Virus record (IMG/VR): IMGVR_UViG_3300043464_002177
DNA from: a virus
Lineage: Duplodnaviria; Heunggongvirae; Uroviricota; Caudoviricetes
Length of the DNA stretch: 53,273 bases
Direction: 5' to 3' (one strand)
Under the pieces are notes generated by a model, which saw nothing but the letters and a program-made list of their open reading frames with translations, made no database searches and was not told the origin of the DNA. Made by a program: the position numbers and the translations under genes. Positions 16,391 through 49,347 of this stretch are shown one piece after another. Positions within the stretch are counted from its first letter, which is position 1; each line of letters starts with the position of its first letter.

Positions 16391-17401
16391 TTAATAACTA
16401 TATGAATCTTTTTTATTACTTGTATCTCCTGCAGGTTCTTTTGTTGAATTTTTCATATTCTCTAAAGCCTCTGTTTCCTGTTCAGCTTTGGTTTTTTTAT
16501 CCGCAAAAAAACGTTTAACTTTTTCAGCGGTCCTTCCTTGACCCCCACCTAAAAGAAGTGGAGAAACTAATTCGTTATATACTACTGCTACTGGAAATAC
16601 CCAATGTAATCCAACAGGTTCCCAAGCTTTCACTAATCTATCCCAAGCCGCTTCTATTTCAGAATCATAAACTGGTGTTTCTTCTGGAACATCTTTAAGA
16701 CAATCGTATAAAAAATTTGCACCAGTAAAAAGACCTGTCCAAAATGCCCATTTTTTAAAAATTTGACCTGTAAAATTTGCAATAGCGTTTGGCCACCCAT
16801 TTCTCTGAAGTGTAGCTTTAATTAAAGAAAAGTCACCAACCCCAGTCCAAAACCATGAATGTACTTTTTTCAATTCTTCTGGTTTTAATTTGGTAATATA
16901 TGGTCTAGTAAATTTTAAAAGAAACGGAATATTCCTTGCAACACCTTTTGCAAATAAAGTTGGGGCACCAGAAACCTTCCAACCAGCTTTAAACGATTGC
17001 GCTATAGTTTCTGTACTTCTTGTATATGCTTCTGCAATTTTTTTAAATGATCCTTTATAGGTGTCAATTGCAGTTTCGCTAACATCTATTTTGTTTTTGG
17101 CTACTAATTGTTTAAAAGTATCTAGAATATAATCCCACTTAAACAAAACCATAATTTCATCAACGCTAAGTTTTGCCCAATCAATTGATTGAATACCCTT
17201 TGCTGCTGTAAGTGTAACTTTACCAGATTTAACTAAATCTTTTAATTCATCTGATTTTAGTAAATCATCTGGTACTCTTTTCACGCCAGCTTTTATCATT
17301 CCTAAAAATTCAGCAACCCATGATGTAGGACCAGTGGCTTCATTTAAAACACCACTTAATTTTCTAAATTTTTCTATTTCTTCGTTTAAATTATTTTTCA
17401 T
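16391..17401 (-). CDS. hypothetical late protein with N-terminal (I/L)xE motif
   Basis: MKNNLNEEIEKFRKLSGVLNE; hydrophobic C-terminal segments. Confidence 0.8.
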   Translation of the reverse strand: MKNNLNEEIEKFRKLSGVLNEATGPTSWVAEFLGMIKAGVKRVPDDLLKSDELKDLVKSGKVTLTAAKGIQSIDWAKLSVDEIMVLFKWDYILDTFKQLVAKNKIDVSETAIDTYKGSFKKIAEAYTRSTETIAQSFKAGWKVSGAPTLFAKGVARNIPFLLKFTRPYITKLKPEELKKVHSWFWTGVGDFSLIKATLQRNGWPNAIANFTGQIFKKWAFWTGLFTGANFLYDCLKDVPEETPVYDSEIEAAWDRLVKAWEPVGLHWVFPVAVVYNELVSPLLLGGGQGRTAEKVKRFFADKKTKAEQETEALENMKNSTKEPAGDTSNKKDSYSY

Positions 17402-17423
17402 ATCGTCCTTTTATTTTAAATAT

Positions 17424-18947
17424 TTAATTTTTATCTAATTGATCAGCAATTACATCAAGATCAGAATTTGGGTCTTTAAAAAATGCATCCAAAACACCTT
17501 TTTGTATTTTTCTAAGCTTATTAAGTTTATTTTCATCATCAACATCATACATTCCACCATACTTTTCAAATATTGGTTTAATGATCATAGAATATGTTGC
17601 GGGGTCTTGTTCTTTAGCTTTTTTAGCTAAACTTGCAATTTGTTGATCCTCATTAGAAGGTAACATACCTTGTAATACTTGTTGCTGAGCTTTTTTATTT
17701 AAGTATTCGTCAACTTTTATACCTCCATATATTATTAATCCACTAGCCGTTAAATCAAACCCAAATCTCCTTAATGCTAAATTATTATATAATTGAGTGG
17801 CTTTAACTTTATCAAGTTGACCATTTCTAATTAATACATTTAATCTTTTAACAACATCAATAGAATTTTCTCTTGTGACATTCTCAAGAACTTCCTTTTC
17901 TATTAGTTTTCTCAATTTATCTGGGTTTTCAGCCAATAAATTTTGCATGAAAACTCTTTCTTTATTTGGTAAAGTTTCTACCTTAGCAATAAGATCTGAT
18001 TTACTAGTTATTGGAGCAAATTCTTTAGCTAATTTTTCAGCAGTTTCTTTTGGTACATTAAGCAATTTGTTATATTTGCCAATAACAGGTATGAATGCCA
18101 AAATAGTGCTAACACCAGCACCAATTGTATCACCTTCTGAATATTGAAGTGCAGCCGAAACCAAATCTATACCAATAGATACCAAAATACCTCCGACCCC
18201 AGGAATTAATACTGCAGCCAATATAGACGCCCCAGTAAGTATTTCATATTTCCACTTTTCCCAAAAAGTTTTTTCAATCTCAACACCAACAAATCCGGAA
18301 CCTTGATCACTATAATAACCAACAAATTTCCATCCGTTAGGTTCTGGATACATCACATAAAATTTTCGTTGAAACTCCTCAGCGCTTACATTTCTAAATT
18401 GTTCTAATTTTGGGTGTTTAAAAGAGGCTGTGTATGTTTTATTATCTGGGGTTTTAAATGTACTAACACTATTTAGTTTTATTATTTTCGACCAATCTGT
18501 AGGTATCCATTTTTCTGTTTCTTTATTACCTAAACCACCGTTCTCTTTTGAAATCATGGGCTTCAATGAATTTTTAAATTTACTACCATTCATTGAACTT
18601 TGATCAAAAAAACCAATAATCTGTGTATTAGCCGGAGCATTCATGATTTTACCATCTGGTCTTAAAATTTGAACAACAGAATTAGATGCTTGTTCACTTA
18701 ATGGGTTTGCTTTACCTCTACTAATCTTTGAACCAACAATTTCTGACCATGTTGTGACACCAACTTGATTAGCTGGTCCTCTGGTAACCCCGCTTTCCCA
18801 TTTAGACGCACCAGTTTTCTTTTCACCATCGCTAGACGTACCGGCTTCAGGCGCCCCTTCACCGGCCCCTTGTTCCTTAAGTTCCTGATTATTAGATGTT
18901 AATCTAATTAATTCCTTAAGTTGTTTTTCTGTAATAACTAAACGCAT
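17424..18947 (-). CDS. hypothetical late protein with central hydrophobic (pre-toxin-TG-like) segment
   Basis: MRLVITEKQL start; IGAGVSTILAFIPVIGK segment. Confidence 0.8.
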   Translation of the reverse strand: MRLVITEKQLKELIRLTSNNQELKEQGAGEGAPEAGTSSDGEKKTGASKWESGVTRGPANQVGVTTWSEIVGSKISRGKANPLSEQASNSVVQILRPDGKIMNAPANTQIIGFFDQSSMNGSKFKNSLKPMISKENGGLGNKETEKWIPTDWSKIIKLNSVSTFKTPDNKTYTASFKHPKLEQFRNVSAEEFQRKFYVMYPEPNGWKFVGYYSDQGSGFVGVEIEKTFWEKWKYEILTGASILAAVLIPGVGGILVSIGIDLVSAALQYSEGDTIGAGVSTILAFIPVIGKYNKLLNVPKETAEKLAKEFAPITSKSDLIAKVETLPNKERVFMQNLLAENPDKLRKLIEKEVLENVTRENSIDVVKRLNVLIRNGQLDKVKATQLYNNLALRRFGFDLTASGLIIYGGIKVDEYLNKKAQQQVLQGMLPSNEDQQIASLAKKAKEQDPATYSMIIKPIFEKYGGMYDVDDENKLNKLRKIQKGVLDAFFKDPNSDLDVIADQLDKN

Positions 18948-19030
18948 ACCCTATAAATATAAAAATATTTGAGTTTTTTTTGGTGATATCAAGAAAATAT
19001 ACTTGTTTTGCACATTAAAATCAATAAAAA

Positions 19031-19579
19031 ATGAAAAAATTACTTTTAATACTAATACCAGTCCTCTTATCTGGTTGTGAGAAGATCGAATTTGAAACAT
19101 ATCCCAAATTATCGGGTCAGTGGAAATTAATATCAGCAGATATTACAATACAAGGTATTCATGGAGATTCCGTGATCCATATTTTAAATGACACAATTAT
19201 CACTGAACAATATAATGTAAGTTCAATAAATGGTAATGTGGTGACTTTTAAACAGAATTATAGTAGAGCTAAACCATTAGATCGTTTTGTTTTAAATAAA
19301 ACTATTTGGGAATTTGAAACAAATATTTTAGGATTACCGACCATGATTAACAACGCACCTGGATATGAATATCAAACATATTATAGTCCAACACAAGATC
19401 TATATTCTGGGAAATATAACGCAATTAAAACGGCTGAAGGTAGATATATTCAAATAAACCAATATGGGTTAACTGAATTAAAGTTGGTATATCCTAACGT
19501 TTGGACAATGTTTAGAAGAAATACCAATGTTGAGGTGTTTATGAAGGAAAATGTTGTTCTTCATTTTAGAAGAATTTAA
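19031..19579 (+). CDS. putative lipoprotein
   Basis: Lipobox LSGC; LSGQWKL lipocalin-like start. Confidence 0.75.
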   Translation: MKKLLLILIPVLLSGCEKIEFETYPKLSGQWKLISADITIQGIHGDSVIHILNDTIITEQYNVSSINGNVVTFKQNYSRAKPLDRFVLNKTIWEFETNILGLPTMINNAPGYEYQTYYSPTQDLYSGKYNAIKTAEGRYIQINQYGLTELKLVYPNVWTMFRRNTNVEVFMKENVVLHFRRI

Positions 19580-24457: not shown

Positions 24458-24844
24458 ATGGCTTACTTACCAAAAATAGAAAACATAGCAAATGAAATTA
24501 TTCAAACATTAATTGAAGATAAATTCTTTGAAGACTTTGAAATAGAAGACTATAGCTATACAAAAAAAAGATTTTGTGAGGAACTAACAACCAAGTTTTT
24601 ACTTAACGGTTTAGAAAACGAAGATATTGGTATTTTTAATGAAGATGAGTTTGATAAAATATTAAAAGAAATTGTTGCTGAGGATATGTTAAGAAGCTTA
24701 CAAAAAACTGGGCTTATAAATTCTTACGAAGATGATAATACCGAAGAAGTCTTTTTTTTAACTGAAAAAGGTCGTGAAGAAATGCAAAAAAAATTAGATG
24801 ATGAAAATGATATTTTGAATATTTTTGTTGATGATGATGTCTAA
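24458..24844 (+). CDS. acidic hypothetical protein
   Basis: ORF track. Confidence 0.7.
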   Translation: MAYLPKIENIANEIIQTLIEDKFFEDFEIEDYSYTKKRFCEELTTKFLLNGLENEDIGIFNEDEFDKILKEIVAEDMLRSLQKTGLINSYEDDNTEEVFFLTEKGREEMQKKLDDENDILNIFVDDDV

Positions 24845-25599
24845 TCTAATTCAAAGGTATCCTTAAATTTCTTTCCAGATTTTTTGTATGAAGCGGCTGT
24901 CTCGTCTTTAGGATTTTTAGTGTATTGCCAATTCCAACATAATTCATCTTTAACATCAAATCCAAAAAATGATAATACTTGTTTTTGTATGTTAATAGTA
25001 TTTTCACCATTCCAGTTTTGCCCCGTAGCAATGATACCACAAGATACATCTTTTAATATATTTGATTCACCCAATGTGCTATGTCTATTTTCCAACCAAG
25101 TTAATCTTTCAATTAAGTTTTGATATTGAGCATTCATTTGACCCCATCTAATAGAACCAAAAAAGACAACAGCATCTGACTCGAATAATTCCTTACTAAT
25201 TTTCCATAATTCATCATCAGGGTTGTTGATACTTCTCCAACATCTGTGATTACCGCTTGGGTTTTTATCTTTATCTTTTAAAGCTGATTTTTTTACACCA
25301 CACGAATTACCTTCCATATGTGAGACATTACCTTCACAATGGTGTATTTGTAAATTGATCGTTTCGAAAAGTGTACATTTTGATTTACCAAGATGAGATT
25401 GTATTGCTTTAGCTAACATAGTAGATTTCGGCTCCTCTTTTAATTCCTTCATAGCCCACTCACCTCTATTAGAGGTTGTTATGAACAACACTTTTTTCTT
25501 ACCTTCAAGAAACTCAATAGTTTCAATAAGTCTCTTATAATGTGGATCATTTTTCTTAAGTGTTGGATCAATTTCTTCTATAAGCTTTATAAGTTTCAT
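24841..25599 (-). CDS. flavodoxin-like / NAD(P)H-dependent FMN reductase family protein
   Basis: TTSNR..S, Cys-rich HCEG..C..C, SDAVVFFGSIRWG, GQNWNG. Confidence 0.8.
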   Translation of the reverse strand: MKLIKLIEEIDPTLKKNDPHYKRLIETIEFLEGKKKVLFITTSNRGEWAMKELKEEPKSTMLAKAIQSHLGKSKCTLFETINLQIHHCEGNVSHMEGNSCGVKKSALKDKDKNPSGNHRCWRSINNPDDELWKISKELFESDAVVFFGSIRWGQMNAQYQNLIERLTWLENRHSTLGESNILKDVSCGIIATGQNWNGENTINIQKQVLSFFGFDVKDELCWNWQYTKNPKDETAASYKKSGKKFKDTFELD

Positions 25600-28640: not shown

Positions 28641-29162
28641 ATGTTACTAGAAACTATTATTAAAAAACAATTGCTAAACCTGGTAGAATCTAAAGAAGCC
28701 AAAGGTAAATTAGCTAAGCAGATTGACGAATTTGCAGAAATACACAGTCAGATCGTAAAACTTGAATCTGAAATTAAAAAATTAAAGGATAATCCAAAAT
28801 ATTCTGAGTCTAAAGAAAAAGTATCTCAGATTATGGAAGAGTTGAAAGCTACCGGTCAGGATACAATGGAAACCAAGCGTTTTATTGTTAAAATAACAAG
28901 AGCTGGTAGCGAATCAGAAATTCCTAAGTATGCGAAAATATTAGAAGATTTCTTACCAAAGGTATCAATTAAATTAAGAGAGACTTACAGCAAGATCAAA
29001 GAACAACACACAACAATAAGTAAAAAGAGCCCTAGTTTAGATGTTAAATCAAAAGAGGAAGTTAAAGAAAGTGGTTCTGGAAAAGCTTCTTTGGGTGGTG
29101 TTTTATCAAGTATCAAGACTGTTCACTCAATGATCAACAGACTTAAAGCTAAGTTTGATTAA
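28641..29162 (+). CDS. coiled-coil hypothetical protein
   Basis: MLLETIIKKQLLNLVE N-terminal motif. Confidence 0.75.
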   Translation: MLLETIIKKQLLNLVESKEAKGKLAKQIDEFAEIHSQIVKLESEIKKLKDNPKYSESKEKVSQIMEELKATGQDTMETKRFIVKITRAGSESEIPKYAKILEDFLPKVSIKLRETYSKIKEQHTTISKKSPSLDVKSKEEVKESGSGKASLGGVLSSIKTVHSMINRLKAKFD

Positions 29163-36887: not shown

Positions 36888-38712
36888 AGATATTATATTT
36901 GAATGGCTTCTTATTGAAAATAAAGAAGAGGTATATAAAAAATACTATTCCGACATTGATCGTGATAATTTTATTAGGATAATAAAAGCAGATCCTAAAA
37001 CCAATGTTCTTAATAATGAAATAAAGGCTATTGGCCCATATTCTAAAATATTAGTGGACATGTATAGAAAAGGTAAATTAATGTTTGAAGATTTACCAAA
37101 AGCGAATGAATATCTAACTTTAGTTTATCGCCATAGAATACCTGTTGATGCATCAAAAATGGAAACAATCGCTAGCATGTATGATTTGGTTAAGGAATAC
37201 ATCGTTAAAAGTGAAAAAAGCTTAGCAACAATTTTAGCAGCATTAAATAAAGACGAATATCAATTATTTGCAAATACCAAATCTTGGTATGTCTTTATAC
37301 CTAAAACAGAAAAAGCTGCGGCTTATCTTGGTGTGAATACTGAGTGGTGTACGGCATGGGGAAAATATTCATTAAACCCCGATTACAAAGAAAGAACTAA
37401 TCACTATAAGAATCATGGTGGTAATTTATACATTATGATTAATAAGGAAAACGAATCGGACAAGTACCAGCTTCATTTTGAAACCGATCAATTTAAAAAT
37501 CCCGCAGACCGTGAAATATCAAACAGACCTGTATTTTTTGATGAAAGATTAGAACTTAAACAAGCAATGTTTCCGTTTGTATTTAAATCCGATCTTGATT
37601 TTGATGAAGTTAAAGATGGTTTAACAAAGTCCAAAAATTTCTTATCAGAAAGTGATTATGAAAATATCATACAACAATTTATGACCATGGTTGGTAGTGA
37701 GAATTCTTTAATTTCTATATTAACAAATTATACTTCAGAACAAGAAGAATTATTACTAAAATTCATATCAGATCCGATTGTACAAGGTGTGGATGTGAAT
37801 CGTAACGGGTTAGAAATAGAAGTAAAAGATTTACCAAGATCCGCACAAAGTTATTACCATGGGCTCAACAACTTAAAAGCATATAAAGAAAGCGCGTATA
37901 ACGACATGAGGGATTATGAATATAATTCATATAGTGATAGTGATTGGGTTGACAGAACGATGAGGGGATTTCTAGAGACATACTATAAAAATAATGTGTC
38001 GGAATTAAAATCTAAGTTTGGTCATTTTGCTGCTAGTTTTGATAAATTTTATGACAAATTTGGAGATGACATTATTGATGATGAAAAAATAAAGGACGGT
38101 TATATTGATCATGCTAGTGATGTTAGCGGCGCATCATTAGAAAATGCATATAGAGAAGAGATCAAAAAAAATGAAGAATATTTAGATATTGATTTGGGTT
38201 GGTCATTAAGGACTATATCATTCCCAATTGAAAATTTAATAATGTATCTAGGTAAAAAAGATATTAAACTTATTCCAAGTTTAGATTCATTTATTGAAGA
38301 TTATATGTATGAACATGATTTAGTTAGTGAAGATTATTATGATGAGCCTGAACACGACTGGGGTTATGCAACTCAAGAACAAATGGATGTTTTATTTGAT
38401 GAATTTTTTGATGACCTTGAGGAAGATCTAGAACAAAACCCTGATTGTTTAGAGGATGCAACAGAGTTTTCAAAAATCTATGAAAAATATTTTAACAATT
38501 CTAATGAGACATTTGAAAATGAATTTGTTAAAATAACTATCATTGATGATACTGTTGATTGTGAGAATGGTATCGAAGTTAATTATCTAAACAAAAAAAC
38601 AAACGAAACTTATGAGGGTTTTATAAAGGTAGATAATATAATAAACTACATACAAACAGAGCCCCTATTTGAGAGGCTCAGTTTAAGTAAATTATTAAAA
38701 GATTTAAATTAA
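36877..38712 (+). CDS. large acidic hypothetical protein (PcfJ-like segment)
   Basis: AAYLGVNTEWCTA..LYIMINK..KYQLHF..F..PAD. Confidence 0.65.
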   Translation: MKFRDIIFEWLLIENKEEVYKKYYSDIDRDNFIRIIKADPKTNVLNNEIKAIGPYSKILVDMYRKGKLMFEDLPKANEYLTLVYRHRIPVDASKMETIASMYDLVKEYIVKSEKSLATILAALNKDEYQLFANTKSWYVFIPKTEKAAAYLGVNTEWCTAWGKYSLNPDYKERTNHYKNHGGNLYIMINKENESDKYQLHFETDQFKNPADREISNRPVFFDERLELKQAMFPFVFKSDLDFDEVKDGLTKSKNFLSESDYENIIQQFMTMVGSENSLISILTNYTSEQEELLLKFISDPIVQGVDVNRNGLEIEVKDLPRSAQSYYHGLNNLKAYKESAYNDMRDYEYNSYSDSDWVDRTMRGFLETYYKNNVSELKSKFGHFAASFDKFYDKFGDDIIDDEKIKDGYIDHASDVSGASLENAYREEIKKNEEYLDIDLGWSLRTISFPIENLIMYLGKKDIKLIPSLDSFIEDYMYEHDLVSEDYYDEPEHDWGYATQEQMDVLFDEFFDDLEEDLEQNPDCLEDATEFSKIYEKYFNNSNETFENEFVKITIIDDTVDCENGIEVNYLNKKTNETYEGFIKVDNIINYIQTEPLFERLSLSKLLKDLN

Positions 38713-39831
38713 TTATTTGTGCGGAGGAAATTGTTGTGGTTTAGTAAATTGGAAAAATATTTGTTTTACCGGAACCGTACTATCTTCGTATGTGGTTATT
38801 AATTCAATATCACCCGCACCAATTCCTTGTAATTTTTGTTCTAATGATTTCCCGTCTTTATTTTCAGACCCATCAATTTGACCATCGGCTCTTTTTACAT
38901 AATCTGAACCGAAAGAACCTCTAGATGTAAATCCCATCCACGCTTTACCATCATTACTTTTACCAACAGTTGCACTATATGTTGTACTAAATTGATTTTC
39001 TGATCTTGTTATTTTTGCATTTAAACTTACAATTTTTGGATTAATACCTTTATCATAAATTTCTTTTAACGCCGGCCCAAGTTTGTCTTCTAAATTCTTA
39101 AAATTATGTGCGGTATCACCATCATTTGATGTAAAAGTCCCGGAAACTGTTTTACTAACTTCACTAACTTCATTTTTATTAGCTGGCGTATCGGCTTGTT
39201 GAGCTGTAGGTGCTTGTGTTGGTTGTGGTGTAGTTACGCTTCCATCTGGTTCAACTTCTGCTCTTTGATAACCCTCTGGTCTACCACCGGAAACGAACAT
39301 TATATAAAGATTATAGGTTTTTTGCGGATCGTTAGGGTCTAAATTAGGTAATTGATCCATTTGAATATGGTTTCTACCTAACACTTTGATTTTACCCCTA
39401 GCACCAACAAATGCACGACTTTTTTCTGCTGCTTTGTCCATTACTTTAGCGGTTAAAACATTTTCAGCGCTACTATTAACCTGGCTATAAATCGATAATG
39501 CTAGATCAAAATACCAATCTCTTTCCTCTTCTTTACATGGTTCTAAAGTTAACGTTAACTTTAATTTTGACCCTTGTATTGAGGCTTTTGCAACACCTCC
39601 TGGATTGTTTGTTTTAACTTTATATGGTGTAGAACCTCTTAACGCTTTTTCAACATCAGTTTTAAGTGTTTTTATTAAGGTTTTTAAACCATCAAAATTA
39701 GGACTAGTCCCCAATTCATTACTAACAACAACAGATATTGGTTGAGCCGCAGTTTGTTCTGCCTGCTCACTAATTACTTTTTCAATAATATCTAAAATAT
39801 TAGATTCCTTAATTTTAATTACTTTCTTCAT
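38713..39831 (-). CDS. hypothetical late protein
   Basis: MKKVIKIKESNILDIIEKVISEQ N-terminal motif. Confidence 0.8.
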   Translation of the reverse strand: MKKVIKIKESNILDIIEKVISEQAEQTAAQPISVVVSNELGTSPNFDGLKTLIKTLKTDVEKALRGSTPYKVKTNNPGGVAKASIQGSKLKLTLTLEPCKEEERDWYFDLALSIYSQVNSSAENVLTAKVMDKAAEKSRAFVGARGKIKVLGRNHIQMDQLPNLDPNDPQKTYNLYIMFVSGGRPEGYQRAEVEPDGSVTTPQPTQAPTAQQADTPANKNEVSEVSKTVSGTFTSNDGDTAHNFKNLEDKLGPALKEIYDKGINPKIVSLNAKITRSENQFSTTYSATVGKSNDGKAWMGFTSRGSFGSDYVKRADGQIDGSENKDGKSLEQKLQGIGAGDIELITTYEDSTVPVKQIFFQFTKPQQFPPHK

Positions 39832-40801
39832 TATTATTAAATATTTGATAAGTTATATACATTCCAGGATTTTCTGAATATATTTTACGTCTCTTTAACC
39901 AGTCATTAATATTATCTAACTGTTTTAATTGATATCCCCAAATATAATCAGCACCGATAGTCTGTGGGTAAACTATTAATTGCTTCCCAATTCCCAAGTT
40001 TTTAAATCTACTAGAAATACCTAGAGCGACCCCTTGAATACCGATCATATCATCAGTTATTTCTATTCCTTCTTTTTGTGGTAGATCTTCTTGTGTTAAA
40101 AAATAAAAACCACCAACTTCACCATTAACTTCAGCAACAACACTTAAACCAAAATTATTATTACATTGACCTTTTATTACTGCCCATATTGATCCGGCTT
40201 TCATTCCACCAAGTTTACTATAAACATCTTCGAGCATATTGAAAACGGCTTCATAATCATCATCTCTATATGATCTTATAATAACATTACTTTCATCACC
40301 CTCGTTTAAATCTATTTGTTCATTTTCTTTCAAAACCTCAAAGAAAAAGTAATTCCTTTCTCTCCATATTTCTTCTAACTGTCCTTCGTTATATTCTAAC
40401 TGACCTAACCATGGATCGTTCACATAAAAAGTATTTGGGGCTTCTGGATTATACGAATGAACAACGATCCAATGTGGTACTCTATGTGTTAATGTTCTCA
40501 ACATTGTAACACTACCTCTATCGATAGCTTCTCTTAATGAATTATATGGATTCTCATCGTCCATATGCTCTATGTATTTTATGTCCAAAGAATTTAACCC
40601 CTTTCTCATTCTTTCCGGTGGCGTCCCAGTAATATTATCAGTACCACAACTCTTACATATTTCAGAAATACTAGCAACTTCTCCTTTAAAGAAATCACCA
40701 ACCATTTTAATACAAGTTGGACCACAACTAATACCATCTGGTTGTCTAATCTGTTTTACCAATCTCTTGTATTGGTCTTCTGTTATTACTAGTTTTTTCA
40801 T
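39815..40801 (-). CDS. peptidase C39-like + GNAT acetyltransferase fusion
   Basis: QPDGISCGPTC..HWIVV..VNDP; C-terminal GVALGISSRFKNLGIGKQL acetyl-CoA motif. Confidence 0.8.
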   Translation of the reverse strand: MKKLVITEDQYKRLVKQIRQPDGISCGPTCIKMVGDFFKGEVASISEICKSCGTDNITGTPPERMRKGLNSLDIKYIEHMDDENPYNSLREAIDRGSVTMLRTLTHRVPHWIVVHSYNPEAPNTFYVNDPWLGQLEYNEGQLEEIWRERNYFFFEVLKENEQIDLNEGDESNVIIRSYRDDDYEAVFNMLEDVYSKLGGMKAGSIWAVIKGQCNNNFGLSVVAEVNGEVGGFYFLTQEDLPQKEGIEITDDMIGIQGVALGISSRFKNLGIGKQLIVYPQTIGADYIWGYQLKQLDNINDWLKRRKIYSENPGMYITYQIFNNNEESN

Positions 40802-41946
40802 TAGCTTTGATATATTTTTAAAAATCCACCCATTTTTTCACCATATACACTATTACCTGTATCAGCAACAACAATGTCGTCATCCTTAAGAATGGCTTTA
40901 TGCTCTTTACCCATATCATCAACGAAAACAACCTCATTCGGTAATTCCTTCATCATTTTTTTCCATAACCCTACCGCTTGATATGATTGAGCTTTACCAG
41001 ATGCTATTGCGCCGAATTTTAAAACAGTTTTATATATTTCTAATGCAATACCCATTTTACGGTATTCCGGTCTAACATATGGTAAAGTTATAAAAAATGT
41101 ATCAGCACTCCTCATTTCAAATTCAGCTATAGCAACTTTAATTTTTTTAAATGGATCAACAACGTGTATCGCAACCATTTCATTACCATCGTTGTATATG
41201 TCATAATGATAAACAAAACCACCAGCCTCTTTTAACTTTGGGATATTTTCTTTAACATGCATGTATTCTTTATAGTTCTCTTCAGGGTCATTTTTCTTAT
41301 ACTTTGGCCCCAGCTCACTAAATCTATAACGATCGATTTCTTTTAGATCTCTATCGTGTTTTTTATATCTATCCGGATTAGCCATCATCTCAGGTTTACT
41401 AAATAATCGCTTCTTTCTTGTAAAGGCGAAACTTCTACTTCTTTCGTCAACTTCTTGATTTTCAGTTACATGTGTATTATGTTTACCGCACCAAGGACAT
41501 ATAGGTAATGACTTTTTCTTTTTATGTATGGTTTGTGTAAAGAATTTTTTACAAGCTGAGCATTTAATAAATTTTGCTGTGTTGTCTTTTTTGTTTTTTT
41601 CCTTGTATAGGTCTATACTTCTCAATATTTGATTATACTTGTCATCTGATAATTCAAATTGACCAACTTCATTCCACCACTTAATAGATCCGTTTTTGGT
41701 AAAATGTTTTGCTTTTCTAACCCATTCTTGACCCGGCTCTGGGTGTTCAACATTCCATAATGTTATAAGATTGGTATCATGCTCCCAGTTCGATTCTACT
41801 CTTTCCCCATTTTCATGAGGTTCCACCACCCATAAAATACCCTTACTAACAAGATTGAAAAAATCAAACGTTTTTCGCTCTTTGTTGGCTTCTCTAAGAT
41901 TTGCAACAATTTTATTTAATTGTTGTTCAGAAATCATAATCTTCAT
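40801..41946 (-). CDS. multidomain protein with zinc ribbon and C-terminal GNAT acetyltransferase
   Basis: CSAC..CPWC; VRPEYRKMGIA..QSYQAVGLWKK; start MKIMISEQQL. Confidence 0.75.
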   Translation of the reverse strand: MKIMISEQQLNKIVANLREANKERKTFDFFNLVSKGILWVVEPHENGERVESNWEHDTNLITLWNVEHPEPGQEWVRKAKHFTKNGSIKWWNEVGQFELSDDKYNQILRSIDLYKEKNKKDNTAKFIKCSACKKFFTQTIHKKKKSLPICPWCGKHNTHVTENQEVDERSRSFAFTRKKRLFSKPEMMANPDRYKKHDRDLKEIDRYRFSELGPKYKKNDPEENYKEYMHVKENIPKLKEAGGFVYHYDIYNDGNEMVAIHVVDPFKKIKVAIAEFEMRSADTFFITLPYVRPEYRKMGIALEIYKTVLKFGAIASGKAQSYQAVGLWKKMMKELPNEVVFVDDMGKEHKAILKDDDIVVADTGNSVYGEKMGGFLKIYQS

Positions 41947-41996: not shown

Positions 41997-42899
41997 ATGA
42001 GGTTATTAGACGTCCTAACTGAAGAACAAAGCTATAAAGTATCCTATTCTGCTGTCGTTTTAGACAAACAGTCAAGAGACGCTATATTAAACCATTTATC
42101 GATCCCAAATGGTTGGAAAACAATTTGTCATCATATGACAATTAAATTGGGCGAATTACCCGATAATCTAAAAAACAGAATCGGTGAAAAGGTCACCCTG
42201 AGAATCAACAAGTTAGGTGAATCTGATAAAGCATTGGCAGTTGGTGTTGATACCGATTTGTCAATGAACGCGATACCACATATCACTGTGGCGATTAATG
42301 TAGCAAACGGGGCAAAGCCAAAAGATTCAAACGACATCAAAGATTGGAAAGATCTTTCAGAAAGTTTTAATGTTACAGGTAAAATCGAAGAGATATTATA
42401 TCAAGTACCATTTAAAGCTAAAGGTTCACCCACAGTTTTAAATGTGTTCGATTTTGATGGTACATTAATGGATTCACCATTACCTGAAACTGGTAAAGAA
42501 CAATATAAAGAAATTACTGGTAAAGACTGGCCACATAAAGGATGGTGGGGACAAATTGATAGTTTAGAACCATTTGAGGTTAAACCAATAGAAGATACAA
42601 AAGATCTTTATAATCAATATTCTGTTATTCCTAATTCAATTAATGTTTTGATGACAAATAGGTTAGCAAAATTTGAACCAGTTGTAAAAGATAAATTGAG
42701 AGGATTATACGTTTTTGATTATTATGATTTCAAAAATGATAATAGAGAAAAGCCTGAAAGGATTAAAGAAATTTTAAAGAACAATCCATCAGTAGATACC
42801 ATCAATATTTTTGATGATATGGATGAACAGATTGAAAGGTTTAATAGATTCAAGGAAGAAAATCCCAACTTAGAGATTAACGTTTTTCAAATAAAATAG
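41997..42899 (+). CDS. 2H phosphodiesterase + HAD phosphatase (RNA end-healing-like enzyme)
   Basis: HHMTI and PHITV 2H motifs; FDFDGTL and IFDD HAD motifs; TAACTTTG promoter at 41971. Confidence 0.8.
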   Translation: MRLLDVLTEEQSYKVSYSAVVLDKQSRDAILNHLSIPNGWKTICHHMTIKLGELPDNLKNRIGEKVTLRINKLGESDKALAVGVDTDLSMNAIPHITVAINVANGAKPKDSNDIKDWKDLSESFNVTGKIEEILYQVPFKAKGSPTVLNVFDFDGTLMDSPLPETGKEQYKEITGKDWPHKGWWGQIDSLEPFEVKPIEDTKDLYNQYSVIPNSINVLMTNRLAKFEPVVKDKLRGLYVFDYYDFKNDNREKPERIKEILKNNPSVDTINIFDDMDEQIERFNRFKEENPNLEINVFQIK

Positions 42900-42901: not shown

Positions 42902-43390
42902 TTATTTTAAAAGATTTTTAATTCTAGTAACGTTTTCGTTTACTTGTTCATTTTCATCTTCCCAAACTTTACTTAATTCAATAACAACAAGTTTCATGTA
43001 ATTACCGTTTTCTAATTGAAATAAAGCGTCGTCTACAATATCTGCGCCAAACTTAGCTTGTTGTTTACCCATCTTTTTTAAGATAGCAACTCTGGCATTC
43101 ATCATTGCTGCAGTTGTTACTGAGTTTTGGTTTTGACCAACAGCTTCACCATAACCTTTCATGTTACTTTTGTCTTGATTGATCTTAGACCATTCAGCTC
43201 TAAGTTGTTCAAGATCTCTACCTTTATCTGGTTTACCTGGTTGTGGTACTTCTTTATTTTGGATCGCGCCTTTTACTTTATCAACAACATTTTGAACCCC
43301 GGTTTTAATTTTGTTACCTAGGTTTTTTAATACTTGTTCGCTTACCATTAATCTTTGTAATTGTTCTTCGGTTATTTTAATTTTTTTCAT
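42902..43390 (-). CDS. hypothetical late protein
   Basis: MKKIKITEEQLQRLMVSEQ; C-terminal VNENVTRIKNLLK. Confidence 0.8.
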   Translation of the reverse strand: MKKIKITEEQLQRLMVSEQVLKNLGNKIKTGVQNVVDKVKGAIQNKEVPQPGKPDKGRDLEQLRAEWSKINQDKSNMKGYGEAVGQNQNSVTTAAMMNARVAILKKMGKQQAKFGADIVDDALFQLENGNYMKLVVIELSKVWEDENEQVNENVTRIKNLLK

Positions 43391-43391: not shown

Positions 43392-44036
43392 TTAGAAATC
43401 TAAACATTTTAAATTGCCCTTTTTATCATATCCAAAATTATAACGATGAAGATCCGGAACCTGTTTGGATACTTTTTGTATTTTTTCAGTTAATTTTATG
43501 TAATTCATGAAGATTGGATACAATTGAGGGTAGTACTTCTTAACCTCTTCATCTACCTTTGCAATGGTTGCATCGCTGTCATATCCGTTTGCTTTAGCTT
43601 TTGGAGAATTTGTCATGTAAATAATAAGGAAATCTAGGAACTCATAACCATCACGTTCGGTCAAAGTCTCTAACATCTCATCAAGTAAATCCCATTCCTT
43701 ATTAACTCTAACGGTATCAAGTTTTTCCATCTCAACATAATCCATTGGAACCACAGTACCTGCAGGAACACTTTTAGATCCTTTATTAAGTCTATAAAAA
43801 AAAAGATCTGATTTAAGTTTAATCTTTGTGGTGCCTCTTTTGTATACTTTAGGGAATATAGATGGGTCTTGTTTAAATTCTTCGATCCAAGAATCAATAG
43901 ACCTCTTAGAACCCAATTTATAAACAATATTAGGATCTGTGGTAGACGGGAATACCTTGTGCTCAACACCGGCACCCATTTCCTTACGGGAACGCCCTTC
44001 ACTAAATTCGTTATTAATTATCTCTAGAAGTTTCAT
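43392..44036 (-). CDS. protein-kinase-like fold protein
   Basis: GAGVEHKVF Gly loop, VYK, catalytic DLHRYN, LDF. Confidence 0.75.
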   Translation of the reverse strand: MKLLEIINNEFSEGRSRKEMGAGVEHKVFPSTTDPNIVYKLGSKRSIDSWIEEFKQDPSIFPKVYKRGTTKIKLKSDLFFYRLNKGSKSVPAGTVVPMDYVEMEKLDTVRVNKEWDLLDEMLETLTERDGYEFLDFLIIYMTNSPKAKANGYDSDATIAKVDEEVKKYYPQLYPIFMNYIKLTEKIQKVSKQVPDLHRYNFGYDKKGNLKCLDF

Positions 44037-44466
44037 TATATGGGCTTACGCTTTTCATTTTTTTAGCATAATCAATTATTTCTTCAAGAGAATCTGCTAC
44101 TCTATATAAATCGTTTTGAATTGTGTCTATCTCTTGATTAACTTTATCCAATTCCGTTACATTATCAGGTCTATCCATCCAATCATACATTTCAACAATA
44201 TCATAGTATTTGTTAAAAATACTTTCATAGTGTTTTTGTTGTGCCTCAAGTTCCTGATGAAATTGTTCAAAACGATCAGGTGCATCCATTATTTCACCAA
44301 TGGTCACAGCACTAATAGCATTAAAAGCAGCTCTTAGTACTTTATTTGCTTTATCCAGATTCTTTTTATTAATTTCAACAAACTCATCAATTTTCTCCGG
44401 AGAGTATTGCCACCCTTCTTCTTGTAATATTTTAAACTGAGCTTCAGTTACAATTATTTTTTTCAT
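44014..44466 (-). CDS. helical hypothetical late protein
   Basis: MKKIIVTEAQFKILQEE. Confidence 0.75.
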   Translation of the reverse strand: MKKIIVTEAQFKILQEEGWQYSPEKIDEFVEINKKNLDKANKVLRAAFNAISAVTIGEIMDAPDRFEQFHQELEAQQKHYESIFNKYYDIVEMYDWMDRPDNVTELDKVNQEIDTIQNDLYRVADSLEEIIDYAKKMKSVSPYNETSRDN

Positions 44467-44519: not shown

Positions 44520-45080
44520 TTATCTATCTCTATAATCATCCTCATCTGGACCGTAATCCAAATCTGAAATCAATTCAACCAAAGTATCTTCAAATTCACT
44601 ATACATTATATCAGCACCACTTATTTCTTTTTGACCTTCTTTCATAGGAGGAAAAGTCATGTCCATGAAATCGCTAATATCTTTACCGTTATAGATTACA
44701 GTTTCTTCACCGCTATCAGATATTTCCTTAACGGTTAGTCTCATTTTTTCAAATTCCCATTCAGGACCTTCTTGATATCCAGGGGTATAATAGTCACCTG
44801 GTTCATAAGAACCATAAGAAGTAATGTTAATATCAAAATTATATTCTAAGGTGTACTTACCTTCTTGATCCCCAATGATAAAGAAACCATCTCCGGAGCT
44901 AACGCTAGAATCATCAAAATAGGGACTCTTTGCGAAATCTTGCAATACACCCATAATGATGCTTTTTATTTCTTCATTATTATCACCAGAAGATTGTAAT
45001 TCAGGTGAGCTAAAATCACTTTCCTGAATCATTCTCATCATACCTTTAATTCTGTTTATAGATTCGTTTAAATTTTTCAT
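44520..45080 (-). CDS. acidic hypothetical late protein
   Basis: MKNLNESINRIKGMMRMIQE. Confidence 0.78.
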   Translation of the reverse strand: MKNLNESINRIKGMMRMIQESDFSSPELQSSGDNNEEIKSIIMGVLQDFAKSPYFDDSSVSSGDGFFIIGDQEGKYTLEYNFDINITSYGSYEPGDYYTPGYQEGPEWEFEKMRLTVKEISDSGEETVIYNGKDISDFMDMTFPPMKEGQKEISGADIMYSEFEDTLVELISDLDYGPDEDDYRDR

Positions 45081-45105: not shown

Positions 45106-45618
45106 TTACCATCTCAAAAGACCAAACAAACCTCTTGATCTTGTCCCATCACAAAAATACGTAGTTCTTTTTCTAAAATGAATAAATCTACTTAAAAATG
45201 TTAACAGCATAATAAAGATAATACCACCGATAGCAATTGCAAAAGCTGGTGGCATGCTAACACCCAATAAGCTTATTACAGCAGGCCCAGCGACTTGCTC
45301 CGTTTGTTGTCTTGATTGTCTCTTTAAATCCTTTAATTGTTTTTTTACTTGCATTAGTTGAGCAAATGATGCGCCCTTCATCTTTTCTTTTAGCTCATTC
45401 ACCTTTTGCATCTGCTCGTCGGTAATGTTTGGCATATCAAATTCGCCAGGTTCCGCACACATTACTTCCTTATATTCTTCTGTAGATAAGTTTTCACCCA
45501 CCTTCTGATTAAATTCACTTGTCATTTGCTGAACTTCCATCTCTTGTTGGTTTTCTCTTATTACCTTTTTAACCAGATTTGTTAGTTCGCTTTCCGTTAA
45601 TCTTACTACTTTAGCCAT
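45106..45618 (-). CDS. late protein with C-terminal TM segment
   Basis: MAKVVRLTESELTNLVKKVIRE; hydrophobic helix near the C-terminus. Confidence 0.78.
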   Translation of the reverse strand: MAKVVRLTESELTNLVKKVIRENQQEMEVQQMTSEFNQKVGENLSTEEYKEVMCAEPGEFDMPNITDEQMQKVNELKEKMKGASFAQLMQVKKQLKDLKRQSRQQTEQVAGPAVISLLGVSMPPAFAIAIGGIIFIMLLTFLSRFIHFRKRTTYFCDGTRSRGLFGLLRW

Positions 45619-45641: not shown

Positions 45642-46082
45642 TTAATCAGGAGTGTTAAATCCATCATATAATTCTGTTTCAGTTACTCGATAAAAAATTG
45701 TTTCATTACCATCTTTATCAACCATAGCGTCCATTTCAACGTTACCATATGCTAAATCAAGAGCATTGAACATTTCCTCAGGTAATTCCTCACCACCATT
45801 ATATACCAATTTGAATATCACACTCTGGTAATAGGAACCTCTATTTTTTCCTGAGTCGTATTTTGTGTCAACCACATTAACGTCAATATCTTCACCAAAT
45901 TGATTTTTCAAAAATTGATCTGGTTCAACATCAACTTCCAAGTAACTATCAGCACCCGGATGGTCATATTCAGGAGGAGTCCCGCCCATATAGTTACCTT
46001 TACTATCATAGTCACCTTCATTCATTGATCTCATCATTCCCTGAATACGAGATACTTGTTCTTCTAATGTTTGTTTTTTCAT
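45642..46082 (-). CDS. acidic hypothetical late protein
   Basis: MKKQTLEEQVSRIQGMMRSMNE. Confidence 0.78.
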   Translation of the reverse strand: MKKQTLEEQVSRIQGMMRSMNEGDYDSKGNYMGGTPPEYDHPGADSYLEVDVEPDQFLKNQFGEDIDVNVVDTKYDSGKNRGSYYQSVIFKLVYNGGEELPEEMFNALDLAYGNVEMDAMVDKDGNETIFYRVTETELYDGFNTPD

Positions 46083-46116
46083 AATAATTTTAGCTTAATA
46101 ATAAATATAAAGAAAA

Positions 46117-46166: not shown

Positions 46167-47126
46167 TTACGGTTCATATATACCTCTATTTCTGTAATCA
46201 TCATATGATTTGTATTTGTACTGATGTTCAGCATCTGGTTCTGTGTTTCTATGGTATTTCTTAACCTCGGCTTCAAAGTCAGAACGTCCTTCTATGCTTC
46301 TTTCGTGAGCATATACTTTGGTATTCACATATTCCTCATATGCTTTTATATCTTCTATTTTACCATCGGCATTATACCATTCACCAGGCGCGAACTCAAC
46401 CGCTACCAAACCATTATATGACCTTTGAAATCTACCAGCCATTTGATGTTTTTCTTCATCTGATAATTCTTTTGGTGAATCTATTTTAATTTTAGTTAAC
46501 CAACTCGCACCAAAAATTTCATTGATCGGTTTCTTATGTGTTACTTCTTTTTCGTTAATAACAAATCTATTAAAAATTGCTTTTAATTCTTTTTGGCCCT
46601 CGTTTAATTCTTCGCTATCAGCTACTTTACGTTTACCCATCATTATATTAAATTTGTCTTCCTTTCTTTTTCTTTCCGCTGGTGGAAGGTTATGTATTGT
46701 TCCTCTTTTAGCTGTATAATCATCATAAGAAGAATATTGATATTGATGTGGTGAATCCGGTTCGGTATTTCTTCTAGTTTTTTTAATATTTGCTTCAAAT
46801 TCAGCATTTTGTGGGCTTTTCCAGCGACCATATACTTTAGTATTCACATGATTTTCATAGTCTTCAATATTTTCTATTTTACCATCCATATTAAACCACT
46901 CACCAGGTTCGAACTCAACAGCAAGCAAGCCATTCCAACCTCGTTGAAATTTATTAGCCATTTCGTGCTTTTGATCATCTGTTAATTTTTCTGGTGAATC
47001 AATTTTGATCTTGGTCAACCATGTTGCACCCATCGATTCGTTAATTGGTGCTTTATAACCATGAGACTTATGCATCCCCATGATTTGTTTTCTTTCTTCT
47101 TCTGTTAAATTAAAATTCTTGTACAT
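46167..47126 (-). CDS. late protein with two tandem ~115-aa repeats
   Basis: Two copies of (A)xWLTKIKIDSP..FQR..NGL.AVEF.PGEW.N.DGKIE..VNTKVY. Confidence 0.85.
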   Translation of the reverse strand: MYKNFNLTEEERKQIMGMHKSHGYKAPINESMGATWLTKIKIDSPEKLTDDQKHEMANKFQRGWNGLLAVEFEPGEWFNMDGKIENIEDYENHVNTKVYGRWKSPQNAEFEANIKKTRRNTEPDSPHQYQYSSYDDYTAKRGTIHNLPPAERKRKEDKFNIMMGKRKVADSEELNEGQKELKAIFNRFVINEKEVTHKKPINEIFGASWLTKIKIDSPKELSDEEKHQMAGRFQRSYNGLVAVEFAPGEWYNADGKIEDIKAYEEYVNTKVYAHERSIEGRSDFEAEVKKYHRNTEPDAEHQYKYKSYDDYRNRGIYEP

Positions 47127-47434
47127 TATATAAATCTTTTAAATTGTGATTTTATTTTTTGAATTGATTCATTCATCATGGTATCATTACCTTCTTCTGA
47201 TTTAGTCTCACGATTTGGGTAATCCGCATAAGGTTCTGGTAATTTTTCCACATATGTCTCTAGAACGTATTTAATAGCCGCCATAAATCTCATCTCTTCA
47301 TTTGATCTAACACCCTGTGGATGATCAACATCTGATTCTGTATCTTCAACATCAGCTCTATCTGACATGTATTCATGAAGTTCTTCTAATAGTTCTACTA
47401 GTTCTCTTTTTGTTGCTGGATAGTAAAAGCCCAT
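47126..47434 (-). CDS. hypothetical protein
   Basis: C-terminal MMNESIQKIKSQFKRFI motif. Confidence 0.75.
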   Translation of the reverse strand: MGFYYPATKRELVELLEELHEYMSDRADVEDTESDVDHPQGVRSNEEMRFMAAIKYVLETYVEKLPEPYADYPNRETKSEEGNDTMMNESIQKIKSQFKRFI

Positions 47435-47521: not shown

Positions 47522-48316
47522 TTAAAATCTTTTGTATGTGGGTGTATACGGAAACTCAACACCATCTCTACCAACTTCTGATTTACCACCAATCTCTCTT
47601 TCTCTGCTTGTAATTTCGATATTATTAGATGCTGGGGTCTTCACTTTAACCATAGCATTATATGTTTTATCTCCAACAACACCATCGTCTTTTAATTGTT
47701 GACCTTTATCATCTTTATTTCCTCTCTGAAATTCAATTACTTTATTTTTTGTTATATTACCAAAATATCCGGTTTGGTGTTTTGTTTCCATACCCAATAA
47801 CTTTTGCAATTCTTTAACAGCTTCAGTGCTACAACCAAATTTAAGAACCTTAATACCACCTTCTTTAATGTCACCCAATGAAGCCGCACAATTTGTGGTA
47901 TTTACTGCAGGTGCCGCTGCTGCTGGGGCTTGAACCTTTCCTAAGTATCTTATTGCTTTAGGGTCCGCATCTGAAATAAATTCAACACCATTCGTACCAC
48001 ACTTCCATTTACCTTTATTGTGCGCACCACGTGCTATAATATTTCCTGTACCATCACTGTATAATACAACTCTTTCTGCTACACCACCTGAAACTGCACT
48101 CGGTAGATCATATGCATAATATGTTTTACCATCTCCGCTCTTTTGTGTGAAAAGCTTTGCATCAACACAAGATAAATCCGCTTTTTTCATTTCTGGTGTC
48201 CAAGAAGGAACCCCAAATGTTTGATTACTTCCTGCTGGTTGAACCAACTGCTCCTTTATTACGTTCTTAACTAAATTTACTAGTTCTGATTCTGTTAGTC
48301 TAATAACTTTTTTCAT
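47522..48316 (-). CDS. peptidoglycan-binding domain protein
   Basis: MKKVIRLTESEL start; AVKELQKLLG..GYFGNIT..VIEFQ..LKDDGVVGDKTY. Confidence 0.8.
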   Translation of the reverse strand: MKKVIRLTESELVNLVKNVIKEQLVQPAGSNQTFGVPSWTPEMKKADLSCVDAKLFTQKSGDGKTYYAYDLPSAVSGGVAERVVLYSDGTGNIIARGAHNKGKWKCGTNGVEFISDADPKAIRYLGKVQAPAAAAPAVNTTNCAASLGDIKEGGIKVLKFGCSTEAVKELQKLLGMETKHQTGYFGNITKNKVIEFQRGNKDDKGQQLKDDGVVGDKTYNAMVKVKTPASNNIEITSREREIGGKSEVGRDGVEFPYTPTYKRF

Positions 48317-48365
48317 GTCTATTTTCGATTTATTATAAATATATTATTATTGGATAATATCTTAA

Positions 48366-48872
48366 TTATACTTTTACTAAACTGATCTCAACACCACTTC
48401 CTACATTAATTTCAGCACTTGATCCTTGATTATCATGTAATTGAACTAGGGCCGCATTTAATTTATCTACAGGTACTTCTATTTCTAACCACCCATCTTC
48501 CGTTAAAGAACGATCCGGTATTAACTTTTTCATTATTTTAGCCACAGTGCCATTCGTTGGCATTACTTCACCTGACAACTTTCCAGTTCCCCTATTTCTA
48601 ACAACATTTCTAAGTTTGATATCGAAATCAATAAATCCATATGAACCAGAAAGTTTATAGGAGAATTTTGAGTTGGGTATTTCTTTTCCATCCTCACCTC
48701 TTCTTGTTAAATAAATAATGTTTGTATTATTGGTTCCACCAATTGGGTTATACCCCATTTTCGTTTTGTCCGTTAATGTATCAACAGTTGGGAATATGGA
48801 TATAAATGCCATTTTCTTTTGTTCTAATAACATTACCTCCCTTATTCTTGATATATTCTCCTGTAAGTTCAT
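48366..48872 (-). CDS. hypothetical late protein
   Basis: MNLQENISRIREVMLLEQ. Confidence 0.75.
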   Translation of the reverse strand: MNLQENISRIREVMLLEQKKMAFISIFPTVDTLTDKTKMGYNPIGGTNNTNIIYLTRRGEDGKEIPNSKFSYKLSGSYGFIDFDIKLRNVVRNRGTGKLSGEVMPTNGTVAKIMKKLIPDRSLTEDGWLEIEVPVDKLNAALVQLHDNQGSSAEINVGSGVEISLVKV

Positions 48873-48882
48873 TTGTTGATGT

Positions 48883-49347
48883 TTATTTGAACCAAACATA
48901 GTTGGGGTTCTTTTGTGAAATCTGTAATGGAACGTTTAATGCATACGCAACCTCTTCACCATTTTGCGTTCCATATAATTTACCAGGATTTATTATTACA
49001 ATTTCATTTGGTGCTTTATTTTGCATTATTTGAACATATTCGTCCATGCTCTTAACGGATAGTTCTTTAACAATTTGATTGGTTTCTTTATTCTTAATAA
49101 TACCACTAACAGGTTTATTTTTTATTATGTGTTGCAATTTTGCTTCTTCCAACAAATCCCAATCAACATCTGAGTTCTTATAGGACGCACCGTATGCGTT
49201 TTTAAATTGTTCATCTGTTTTTAACTTATTTACAAAAGCAATTGGATCTTTTATTAATTCATCCAAATAGCTTTTAAGGTCGGTAGATACTTGTTCATTA
49301 AGTCCCATTACCTGTTTGATTCTATGTATGTTTTCCTGTAAGTTCAT
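48883..49347 (-). CDS. hypothetical late protein
   Basis: MNLQENIHRIKQVMGLNEQ. Confidence 0.78.
   Translation of the reverse strand: MNLQENIHRIKQVMGLNEQVSTDLKSYLDELIKDPIAFVNKLKTDEQFKNAYGASYKNSDVDWDLLEEAKLQHIIKNKPVSGIIKNKETNQIVKELSVKSMDEYVQIMQNKAPNEIVIINPGKLYGTQNGEEVAYALNVPLQISQKNPNYVWFK

Follow-up and report, generated by a model that had tools for sequence, protein, structure and literature searches.

Interchangeable N-terminal leaders as candidate capsid-targeting and prohead-protease signals in a clade of uncultured T4-like phages

Why should about 20 proteins that are otherwise unrelated begin with the same kind of short helix? The question is raised by IMG/VR record IMGVR_UViG_3300043464_002177, a stretch of 53,273 nucleotides of tailed-phage DNA (the window, by which we mean the whole stretch), in which proteins encoded between positions 16,391 and 49,347 carry short N-terminal leaders, or tags, ending in (I/L)xE. 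The original prediction, made from the letters of the DNA, was that these leaders address proteins to the capsid and are cut by a prohead protease, as in phage T4. The T4 precedent on which it drew is well supported: T-even phages carry a capsid-targeting sequence (CTS) of ~10 amino acids (MKTYQEFIAE) on Ip1-3 and many polymorphic relatives, and it is removed by gp21 (PMC9958956, PMC3012670, PMC12373910). The T4 CTS suffices to package GFP, and its recognition is still called mysterious (PMC9958956). T4 also packages the ADP-ribosyltransferase (ART) Alt and small restriction inhibitors (PMC9958956, PMC12373910).

We found that the leaders are real, almost exclusively N-terminal, interchangeable, and the property of one phage clade with a T4-type protease. 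We think that in a T4-like giant phage they probably serve for capsid targeting and as sites for the prohead protease, as an expanded, multi-class analogue of the T4 CTS.

Leader classes in the window

The leaders fall into three classes (Table 1). Class 1, with the consensus MKKxxITExQLxxL(I/V)..(I/L)xE, forms the N-terminus of 11 open reading frames (ORFs) of the window. Its residues 6-9 include another, almost invariant motif of this kind, (I/L)TE, which the original prediction did not point out as a candidate cut site. Class 2, NLxExIxRIxxxM.LxE, begins five ORFs. Class 3, MK(L/F)xx(I/L)(I/L)xE, is short and weaker, and was found on four to six ORFs; among the six proteins originally assigned to it, 24841, 35331, 36877 and 41997 are clear, and 43392 and 28641 are doubtful. 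Five ORFs were re-started relative to the longest ORF, at 34827 (33667), 41946 (40801), 44466 (44014), 45080 (44520) and 48872 (48366), where the low coordinate is in brackets. About 22 tagged genes thus lie within 33 kb.

All the ORFs originally listed exist and have the N-termini given for them, and classes 1 and 2 were confirmed. A strict class-1 regular expression had eight matches in the six-frame translation of the window, and a strict class-2 expression had four, and every one of them (8/8 and 4/4) lay at a Met start. A class-1 profile built from the 11 window N-termini was then run over the same translation (35,595 residues). Members scored 16.8-28 bits, all 11 at a Met start, and the rest of the translation scored 4.3 bits or less. 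Because the profile was trained on its own members, the informative parts of this result are the clean gap and the lack of internal matches. Beyond the leader the proteins are indeed unrelated, as we found no BLASTP pair at E <= 0.01 when the bodies (residues 29 onward) of 24 proteins were compared with one another.

The leaders are concentrated in one part of the DNA. An [ILVM]xE at residues 3-12 is encoded by 22 of 49 genes at 16-50 kb and by none of the 21 genes in the rest of the window (Fisher p = 6e-5). The same holds in G001, a 251-kb IMG/VR contig that was found through the tagged protein 39815-40801 and whose first 57 kb are syntenic with window positions 41-49269, in reverse order and at ~75% nucleotide identity: there, 24/55 genes of the island of tagged genes have the motif, compared with 28/202 elsewhere (p = 6e-6). 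The tag Thr codons are ACA, ACT, ACC or ACG, and the remaining tag codons also vary synonymously, which shows that conservation is at the level of the protein rather than the DNA and that selection acts on the peptide.

Leader exchange and spread within one clade

The strongest new result is that the leaders are interchangeable on orthologous bodies, and the portability proposed for them is borne out. The window protein 45106-45618 has a class-1 leader and its G001 counterpart (1683-2186) a class-2 leader, and the two bodies are 72% identical from about residue 29. Orthologues of the class-3 protein 24841-25599 in five IMG/VR loci bear class 2 on bodies that are 56-59% identical. In another body family one phage has class 1 where others have MKFLEILEE or MKLIDLLTE, and members of the large …RYMFFSNLEQMRRQC… family carry either the full class-1 leader or its second half only (…LIKKVIKE). 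Class 3 is better supported as a consequence, because its leaders sit on bodies whose orthologues have class 1 or 2.

Exchange was also followed in the family of 39815-40801, a two-domain protein with a C39-type peptidase and a GNAT domain resembling N-terminal acetyltransferases. A database search gave 165 homologues, 112 of which have a conserved QPxGxSCG anchor, and these yielded 95 unique leaders: 47 of class 1, 33 of class 2 and 15 that are short or other, with hybrids such as MKKTTITEEVIRIKSIMGLSE among them. An [LIVMF]xE is present in 88/95 leaders, mostly 5-11 residues ahead of the anchor. The common denominator of the leader classes is an amphipathic helix ending in hxE (h, hydrophobic) just ahead of the body.

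We scanned IMG/VR with a degenerate DNA pattern for M-K-K-(I/V)-x-x-T-E-x-(Q/E)-(L/F); all counts from it are lower bounds and refer to the matches listed. The pattern was found in at least 115 stretches, whereas a control with identical codons in reversed order had 2 matches, and a pattern 3 bits shorter, run as a calibration of chance, had 21. Positions that the pattern leaves free show the same consensus, L(I/V)(K/E)(K/R)(V/I/L)(I/L/V)xE. The 115 loci listed comprise 1 Mb and contain 163 class-1 matches (159 at Met starts, two C-terminal, two internal) together with 17 class-2 matches; their 166 complete tagged proteins represent 57 body families. In prokaryote genomes (596 Gb) the pattern matched 80 stretches, and a full tag was present in 4 of the 80, compared with 68/118 in IMG/VR (p = 1e-15). 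These four lie on small low-GC contigs of metagenome-assembled genomes (MAGs) and look like mis-binned phage DNA.

Small low-GC contigs with full class-1 tags, sometimes several, occur in the Wolfebacteria MAG NORP124 (L222, L225, L248), and others in Chitinophagales and Sediminibacterium MAGs (L246, L202) and in IMG/VR 'GVMAG' records (L043, L138, L158). Such contigs in bacterial or giant-virus MAGs are probably mis-binned fragments of these phages, and the Bacteroidota bins may hint at the host. Tag-bearing contigs come from lake samples, for instance those of IMG/VR UViG 3300021963 and 3300024346. In the isolate assembly of Belliella buryatensis strain 5C, two small contigs (L193, L203) begin with ORFs starting MKKIIITENQLQKL; they could be phage DNA carried in the culture and a lead to an experimental system.

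The tag belongs to one clade of uncultured T4-like phages, as judged from the capsid protein. In all 13 large contigs that bear both the tag and an S77 protease, the capsid protein is 55-82% identical to that of G001, whereas in two control T4-like contigs it reaches only 32%, over part of the protein. Within the clade the tagged island expands and contracts strongly, and its gene content varies between relatives; the 310-kb contig G004 (93% complete) has only ~6 class-1 and 4 class-2 N-terminal tags, as against 16 in 33 kb of the window. Among 50,697 phage records we found no match to the island DNA, to a tagged protein, or to a 26-residue class-1 tag (tblastn). Rhodothermus phage RM378 is among the phages with the nearest cultured capsid proteins. 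In the papers searched we found no description of such expanded tags in metagenomic T4-like phages.

The tag module ends at the candidate cleavage motif. Across 123 non-redundant class-1 tags from the matches listed, the Glu of (V/I/L)(I/L/V)xE is the last position before information content drops to the background level. An AlphaFold2 (AF2) prediction on an 80-tag alignment has residues 1-8 extended and a helix at residues 9-24, with a predicted local distance difference test (pLDDT) score of 90-95 over residues 1-20 and low values after that. The helix is amphipathic, with a hydrophobic moment above that of ~98% of shuffles in 3/4 tags tested. The AF2 model of 39815-40801, with a mean pLDDT of 84.8, begins with a disordered stretch (residues 1-7) and a short helix at residues 8-14 that is not packed on the protein, and continues as a C39-peptidase fold (template-modelling score 0.73-0.86 to the ComA and PCAT1 peptidase domains by Foldseek) followed by a GNAT fold. 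Class-2 copies had also been proposed at the C-termini of 42902 and 47126. They are visible but fall below the profile threshold, and such copies are clearer in relatives than in the window.

Head module, timing and rival explanations

The window has no head genes, and the prohead protease was seen only in its syntenic relative. G001 encodes a Peptidase_S77 of the T4 gp21 type (PF03420, E = 2e-24) and a Gp23-family capsid protein (PF07068, E = 1e-63). Its head genes are ordered terminase-like, portal-like, two small genes, protease, a very acidic scaffold-like gene and capsid protein, which is the T4-like order of genes 17, 20, 67/68, 21, 22 and 23 as assigned by position and size; a PHROGs search with the neighbours in this module was uninformative. 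The clade protease retains ELNHP and G(V/I)SSRG(L/V)GS, and its N-terminal G(I/L)L(I/L/V)E (LLIE in G001) aligns with the LLIE at which T4 gp21 autocleaves its first nine residues (PMC9958956). Fourteen clade capsid proteins have, without exception, an [IL][NS]E near residue 58, after which come ~7 variable residues and then the conserved SGSFETVVFPI(I/V)RR; T4 gp23 loses 65 residues after LTE (PMC9958956). Since both capsid protein and protease keep (I/L)xE where they are predicted to be cut, it is reasonable to infer that the clade protease is specific for this motif.

Other genes near the head module carry related motifs. Between the portal-like and protease genes, G001 76068-76817 encodes a 249-residue protein that has the N-terminus MxNFGxhKxKhLxK(I/L)TESY in common with its homologues. 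The (I/L)TES in it matches the class-1 tags and may be where this core protein, which takes the place of T4 gp67/gp68, is processed. Capsid-adjacent genes of G001 (82241-83519) and G004 (273.8-275.2 kb) have internal or C-terminal motifs resembling classes 1 and 2 (KIIQISEDQFNRL; IKITEEQFKKLFES; NLQENIQRIKEVMG). The widespread RYMFFSNLEQMRRQC family, tagged in many relatives, adjoins the head module in G001.

The DNA upstream of the genes bears on the timing of their expression. Within the 40 bases that precede genes, the 8-mer TATTTATA and neighbouring words show the strongest enrichment. In G001, NTATTTAT(A/T) precedes the terminase-like, portal-like, protease and scaffold genes, as well as many very large genes of tail-fibre size, at position -12 or -24, and in both G001 and the window the first genes of tagged runs have it at the same distances. 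Window sites are upstream of 18947, 34827, 34862, 45080, 46082, 47434, 48316, 28641 and others. The early-gene signal of this genome was not found upstream of tagged genes, apart from one variant. The NTATTTAT(A/T) motif looks like the late promoter of the clade; at -12 it would leave almost no mRNA leader. Its placement suggests that the tagged genes may be co-expressed with virion genes.

We outline a mechanism in which docking, cleavage, packaging and ejection of the tagged proteins are the steps that we infer. The tagged proteins would be made late in infection, alongside the head proteins, and the amphipathic leader helix would dock each cargo into the scaffolding core of the assembling prohead. 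The gp21-type protease would then cut after the Glu of an (I/L)xE, either the (I/L)TE of residues 6-9 or the (V/I/L)(I/L/V)xE with which the helix ends near residue 22, or after the Glu of each. Once trimmed, the cargo would stay in the head and enter the host with the DNA.

Several observations weigh against this mechanism. The case for it is one of sequence logic throughout: the gp21-type protease was seen in G001 and not in the window's own DNA, and the specificity of that protease is read from conserved motifs. An S77 protease is present in 13/18 tag-bearing contigs of at least 100 kb, including 4/4 of those at least 80% complete, but also in 2/5 of a small control set (p = 0.3); since many large low-GC contigs are from T4-like phages, co-occurrence is not a discriminating measure. 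Neither class 1 nor class 2 has sequence similarity to the T4 CTS consensus MKTYQEFIAE. In the C39/GNAT family, 7/47 class-1 leaders read ITK or ITN and have no other hxE (7/95 overall). Tag-like helices occur at C-termini and at internal sites, where the logic of an N-terminal propeptide fails and a binding helix fits better. Finally, the closest cultured capsid protein, from Flavobacterium phage immuto (42% identity over 58%), belongs to a phage without tags; a loosened tag pattern had 4 matches in immuto compared with 1 in the control, and the one that was checked falls inside an annotated gene, so that immuto is no obvious system for experiments.

Other readings were weighed as well. The helix could dock its proteins to another late assembly, such as part of the tail or baseplate, a decoration on the outside of the head or an intracellular phage scaffold, and (I/L)xE would then be incidental to a helix rich in I, L, K and E. 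C-terminal and internal placement, leaders without Glu, and cell-wall-binding domains on several cargos (PG_binding, LysM, OmpA), which could act outside the cell or at lysis, speak for such docking. We nevertheless consider it unlikely, given that conservation ends exactly at Glu, that three different leader sequences have only their hxE end in common, that many cargos are enzymes acting in the cytoplasm (ART, GNAT, nucleotidyltransferase, RNA repair), and that the same motif is at the predicted cut sites of capsid protein and protease. The leader could instead be a removable pro-peptide or timing device that keeps enzymes inactive or unstable, with no targeting and no packaging. It does end in a protease motif, and in the C39/GNAT protein it abuts the oxyanion Gln and catalytic Cys (QPDGISCG, residues 20-27), yet the AF2 model does not put the helix on the active site, and the same leader is found on non-enzymatic and membrane proteins. 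T4-type prohead proteases moreover act inside the prohead (PMC9958956), so that cleavage implies co-location, and we hold a pure pro-peptide to be quite unlikely.

Two further explanations place the function of the leader elsewhere. That it directs proteins to the host membrane, the periplasm, a secretion route or a compartment of the infected cell is very unlikely in our view, even though the cargos include cell-wall binders or hydrolases and a protein with a transmembrane segment. The leader consensus has no hydrophobic core, twin-arginine motif or lipobox, the true signal peptides and lipoproteins of the window look different (e.g. 19031, 29366), and full tags are essentially absent from prokaryote genomes. 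A classical secretion signal in particular was rejected, as the consensus is a charged amphipathic helix. A feature of nucleic acid or expression, whether a shared 5' recombination cassette, optimisation of translation starts or an AT-rich compositional artefact, could draw on the frequency of MKK (ATGAAAAAA) starts in AT-rich genomes and on the strong variation of the gene island among relatives. It is extremely improbable in the face of the synonymous codon variation throughout the tag, the scrambled-order control of identical composition and the recurrence of one consensus at unconstrained positions in distant contigs; a DNA-level cassette or compositional artefact is largely refuted by the first two of these.

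Capsid targeting with prohead cleavage, the reading that we prefer, can be set beside known systems. As with the T4 CTS, the leader is the sole similarity among otherwise unrelated proteins, T4 internal proteins being non-essential and highly variable, and it ends in (I/L)xE. The lineage likewise encodes a protease of the gp21 type, a gp22-like scaffold and a capsid protein of the gp23 type (seen in G001), and the gene content of its tagged island differs among close relatives. Class 3 (MKFRDIIFE, MKLIKLIEE) resembles the T4 CTS in length and in the pattern M-K-x3-4-h-h-x-E. In contrast to T4, class-1 and class-2 leaders have 17-23 residues and a predicted helix that runs past the first (I/L)TE, at least three leader classes are swapped on the same body, and ~22 genes are tagged in 33 kb where T4 has 3. 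Many cargos are recognisable enzymes, whereas those of T4 are small inhibitor proteins; C-terminal or internal copies occur here occasionally, and packaging and cleavage are here predictions.

An enzyme cargo of the head core also has a T4 parallel, in that gpAlt is a packaged and injected ART trimmed by gp21 (PMC9958956). Tagged proteins of relatives include ART-PolyVal, but Alt lacks a consensus CTS, and we found no ART among the tagged proteins of the window itself. The prohead proteases of phiKZ and SPN3US process ~8-19 head and ejection proteins (PMC5694885, PMC7411985, PMC10052503). Those giant phages share with the present ones the packaging of many proteins in the head and cutting after Glu, both of which are here predicted; they differ in their cut motif, (S/A/G)xE, and in having long protein-specific propeptides, as opposed to short shared leaders ending in (I/L/V)xE, and the present lineage has its gp23-type capsid protein. 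Encapsulin cargo-loading peptides are short, portable and usually C-terminal, and address unrelated enzymes to the interior of an HK97-fold shell. The tags are similar as short portable terminal appendages on unrelated enzymes, but they are N-terminal in 159/163 listed class-1 matches and the shell gene is a phage capsid gene of the gp23 type, whereas encapsulins have a different motif, no protease step and a non-viral shell.

Tagged genes and the cargo they may deliver

Pfam and PHROGs searches with the tagged window proteins were mostly empty, and the domains that could be assigned are given in Table 1. In relatives, the cargo domains are ART-PolyVal, GNAT, PolyA_pol with HD, LysM, OmpA, lysozyme and glucosaminidase.

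Table 1. Tagged and related ORFs of the window, with late-type motifs upstream
Class	Coordinates	Strand	Length (aa)	Leader	Other features
1	17424..18947	-	507	MRLVITEKQLKELIRL	tag from 18947 downwards, then Gly/Glu/Ser-rich linker; TATTTATA-type motif at 18960
1	31035..31481	+	148	MKKYIFTEGQVKKVIDHLMNEE	
1	33667..34827	-	386	MKRIVVTESQARLIVDTLISEQ	from ATG 34827; late-type motif at 34852
1	34862..35341	+	159	MNILITESQYNKLIKK	late-type motif at 34849
1	38713..39831	-	372	MKKVIKIKESNILDIIEKVISEQ	weakest member (16.8 bits)
1	39815..40801	-	328		C39-type cysteine peptidase (~residues 20-156) and GNAT acetyltransferase (~173-323), by Pfam, AF2 and Foldseek
1	40801..41946	-	381	MKIMISEQQLNKIVANLRE	from ATG 41946
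1	42902..43390	-	162	MKKIKITEEQLQRLMVSEQ	C-terminus NENVTRIKNLLK, class-2-like
1	44014..44466	-	150	MKKIIVTEAQFKILQEE	from ATG 44466
1	45106..45618	-	170		C-terminal transmembrane segment
1	47522..48316	-	264	MKKVIRLTESELVNLVKNVIKEQ	PG_binding_1 domain; late-type motif at 48342
2	16391..17401	-	336	MKNNLNEEIEKFRKLSGVLNEA	
2	44520..45080	-	186	MKNLNESINRIKGMMRMIQES	from ATG 45080; late-type motif at 45098
2	45642..46082	-	146	MKKQTLEEQVSRIQGMMRSMNEG	late-type motif at 46108
2	48366..48872	-	168	MNLQENISRIREVMLLEQ	from ATG 48872
2	48883..49347	-	154	MNLQENIHRIKQVMGLNEQ	
3	24841..25599	-	252	MKLIKLIEEIDP	weak FMN_red-like (flavodoxin-like) match
3	35331..36887	+	518	MKFRNLLETILIEE	weak methyltransferase-like match
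3	36877..38712	+	611	MKFRDIIFEWLLIEN	
3	41997..42899	+	300	MRLLDVLTEE	tRNA-ligase cyclic-phosphodiesterase-like and HAD (RNA-repair) matches
possible 3, doubtful	43392..44036	-	214	MKLLEIINNEFSE	
possible 3, doubtful	28641..29162	+	173	MLLETIIKKQLLNLVES	late-type motif at 28616
fourth leader type	46167..47126	-	319	MYKNFNLTEEERKQIMGMH	internal duplication
small acidic ORF	47126..47434	-	102		C-terminus NESIQKIKSQFKRFI, class-2-like; late-type motif at 47458

The protein with the fourth leader type (NLTEEERKQIMGMH) consists of a duplicated unit of ~150 residues (…WLTKIKIDSP.(K/E)L(T/S)D…). The C39/GNAT two-domain family is abundant in metagenomes (its 165 matches are at E <= 1e-5) and appears unstudied. 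Around the tagged genes, the window is AT-rich phage DNA (30-35% GC) with an endolysin-like gene that has a PG-binding domain, a GH19/PG-binding gene, glycosyltransferases, a UDP-galactopyranose mutase, a GMP-reductase-like gene, an NS-type endonuclease and many ORFs without a known family.

If the tagged proteins are packaged as proposed, the window's phage would deliver to its host the C39-peptidase/GNAT protein, the RNA-repair-like phosphodiesterase and peptidoglycan-binding proteins, and its relatives would deliver ARTs, GNATs, nucleotidyltransferases of the poly(A)/CCA type and lysozymes. We tentatively propose, with somewhat more doubt than conviction, that the clade uses a small set of interchangeable address helices, of at least three classes and at either terminus, as a general loading code that lets nearly any enzyme be taken into the capsid and carried into the host with the DNA. 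The tag profile offers an inexpensive way of annotating hundreds of metagenomic proteins without a known family, and the tags are possibly useful as new packaging signals for loading proteins into phage capsids. The natural leader swaps on one body family also provide a comparative data set for the binding partner of the CTS; if several leader sequences bind the same site, their comparison could reveal the CTS receptor in the scaffolding core.

If this proposal is correct, the system would be the phage equivalent of secretion-system effectors whose signals can be swapped, at about ten times the scale seen in T4 and with cargo that includes peptidase/acetyltransferases, ARTs, RNA-repair and RNA-tailing enzymes and wall hydrolases. 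The repertoire that T4-like phages are known to inject, a few small restriction inhibitors, would then extend to dozens of enzymes in each genome, and candidate effectors of early host takeover and anti-defence could be read from sequence alone.

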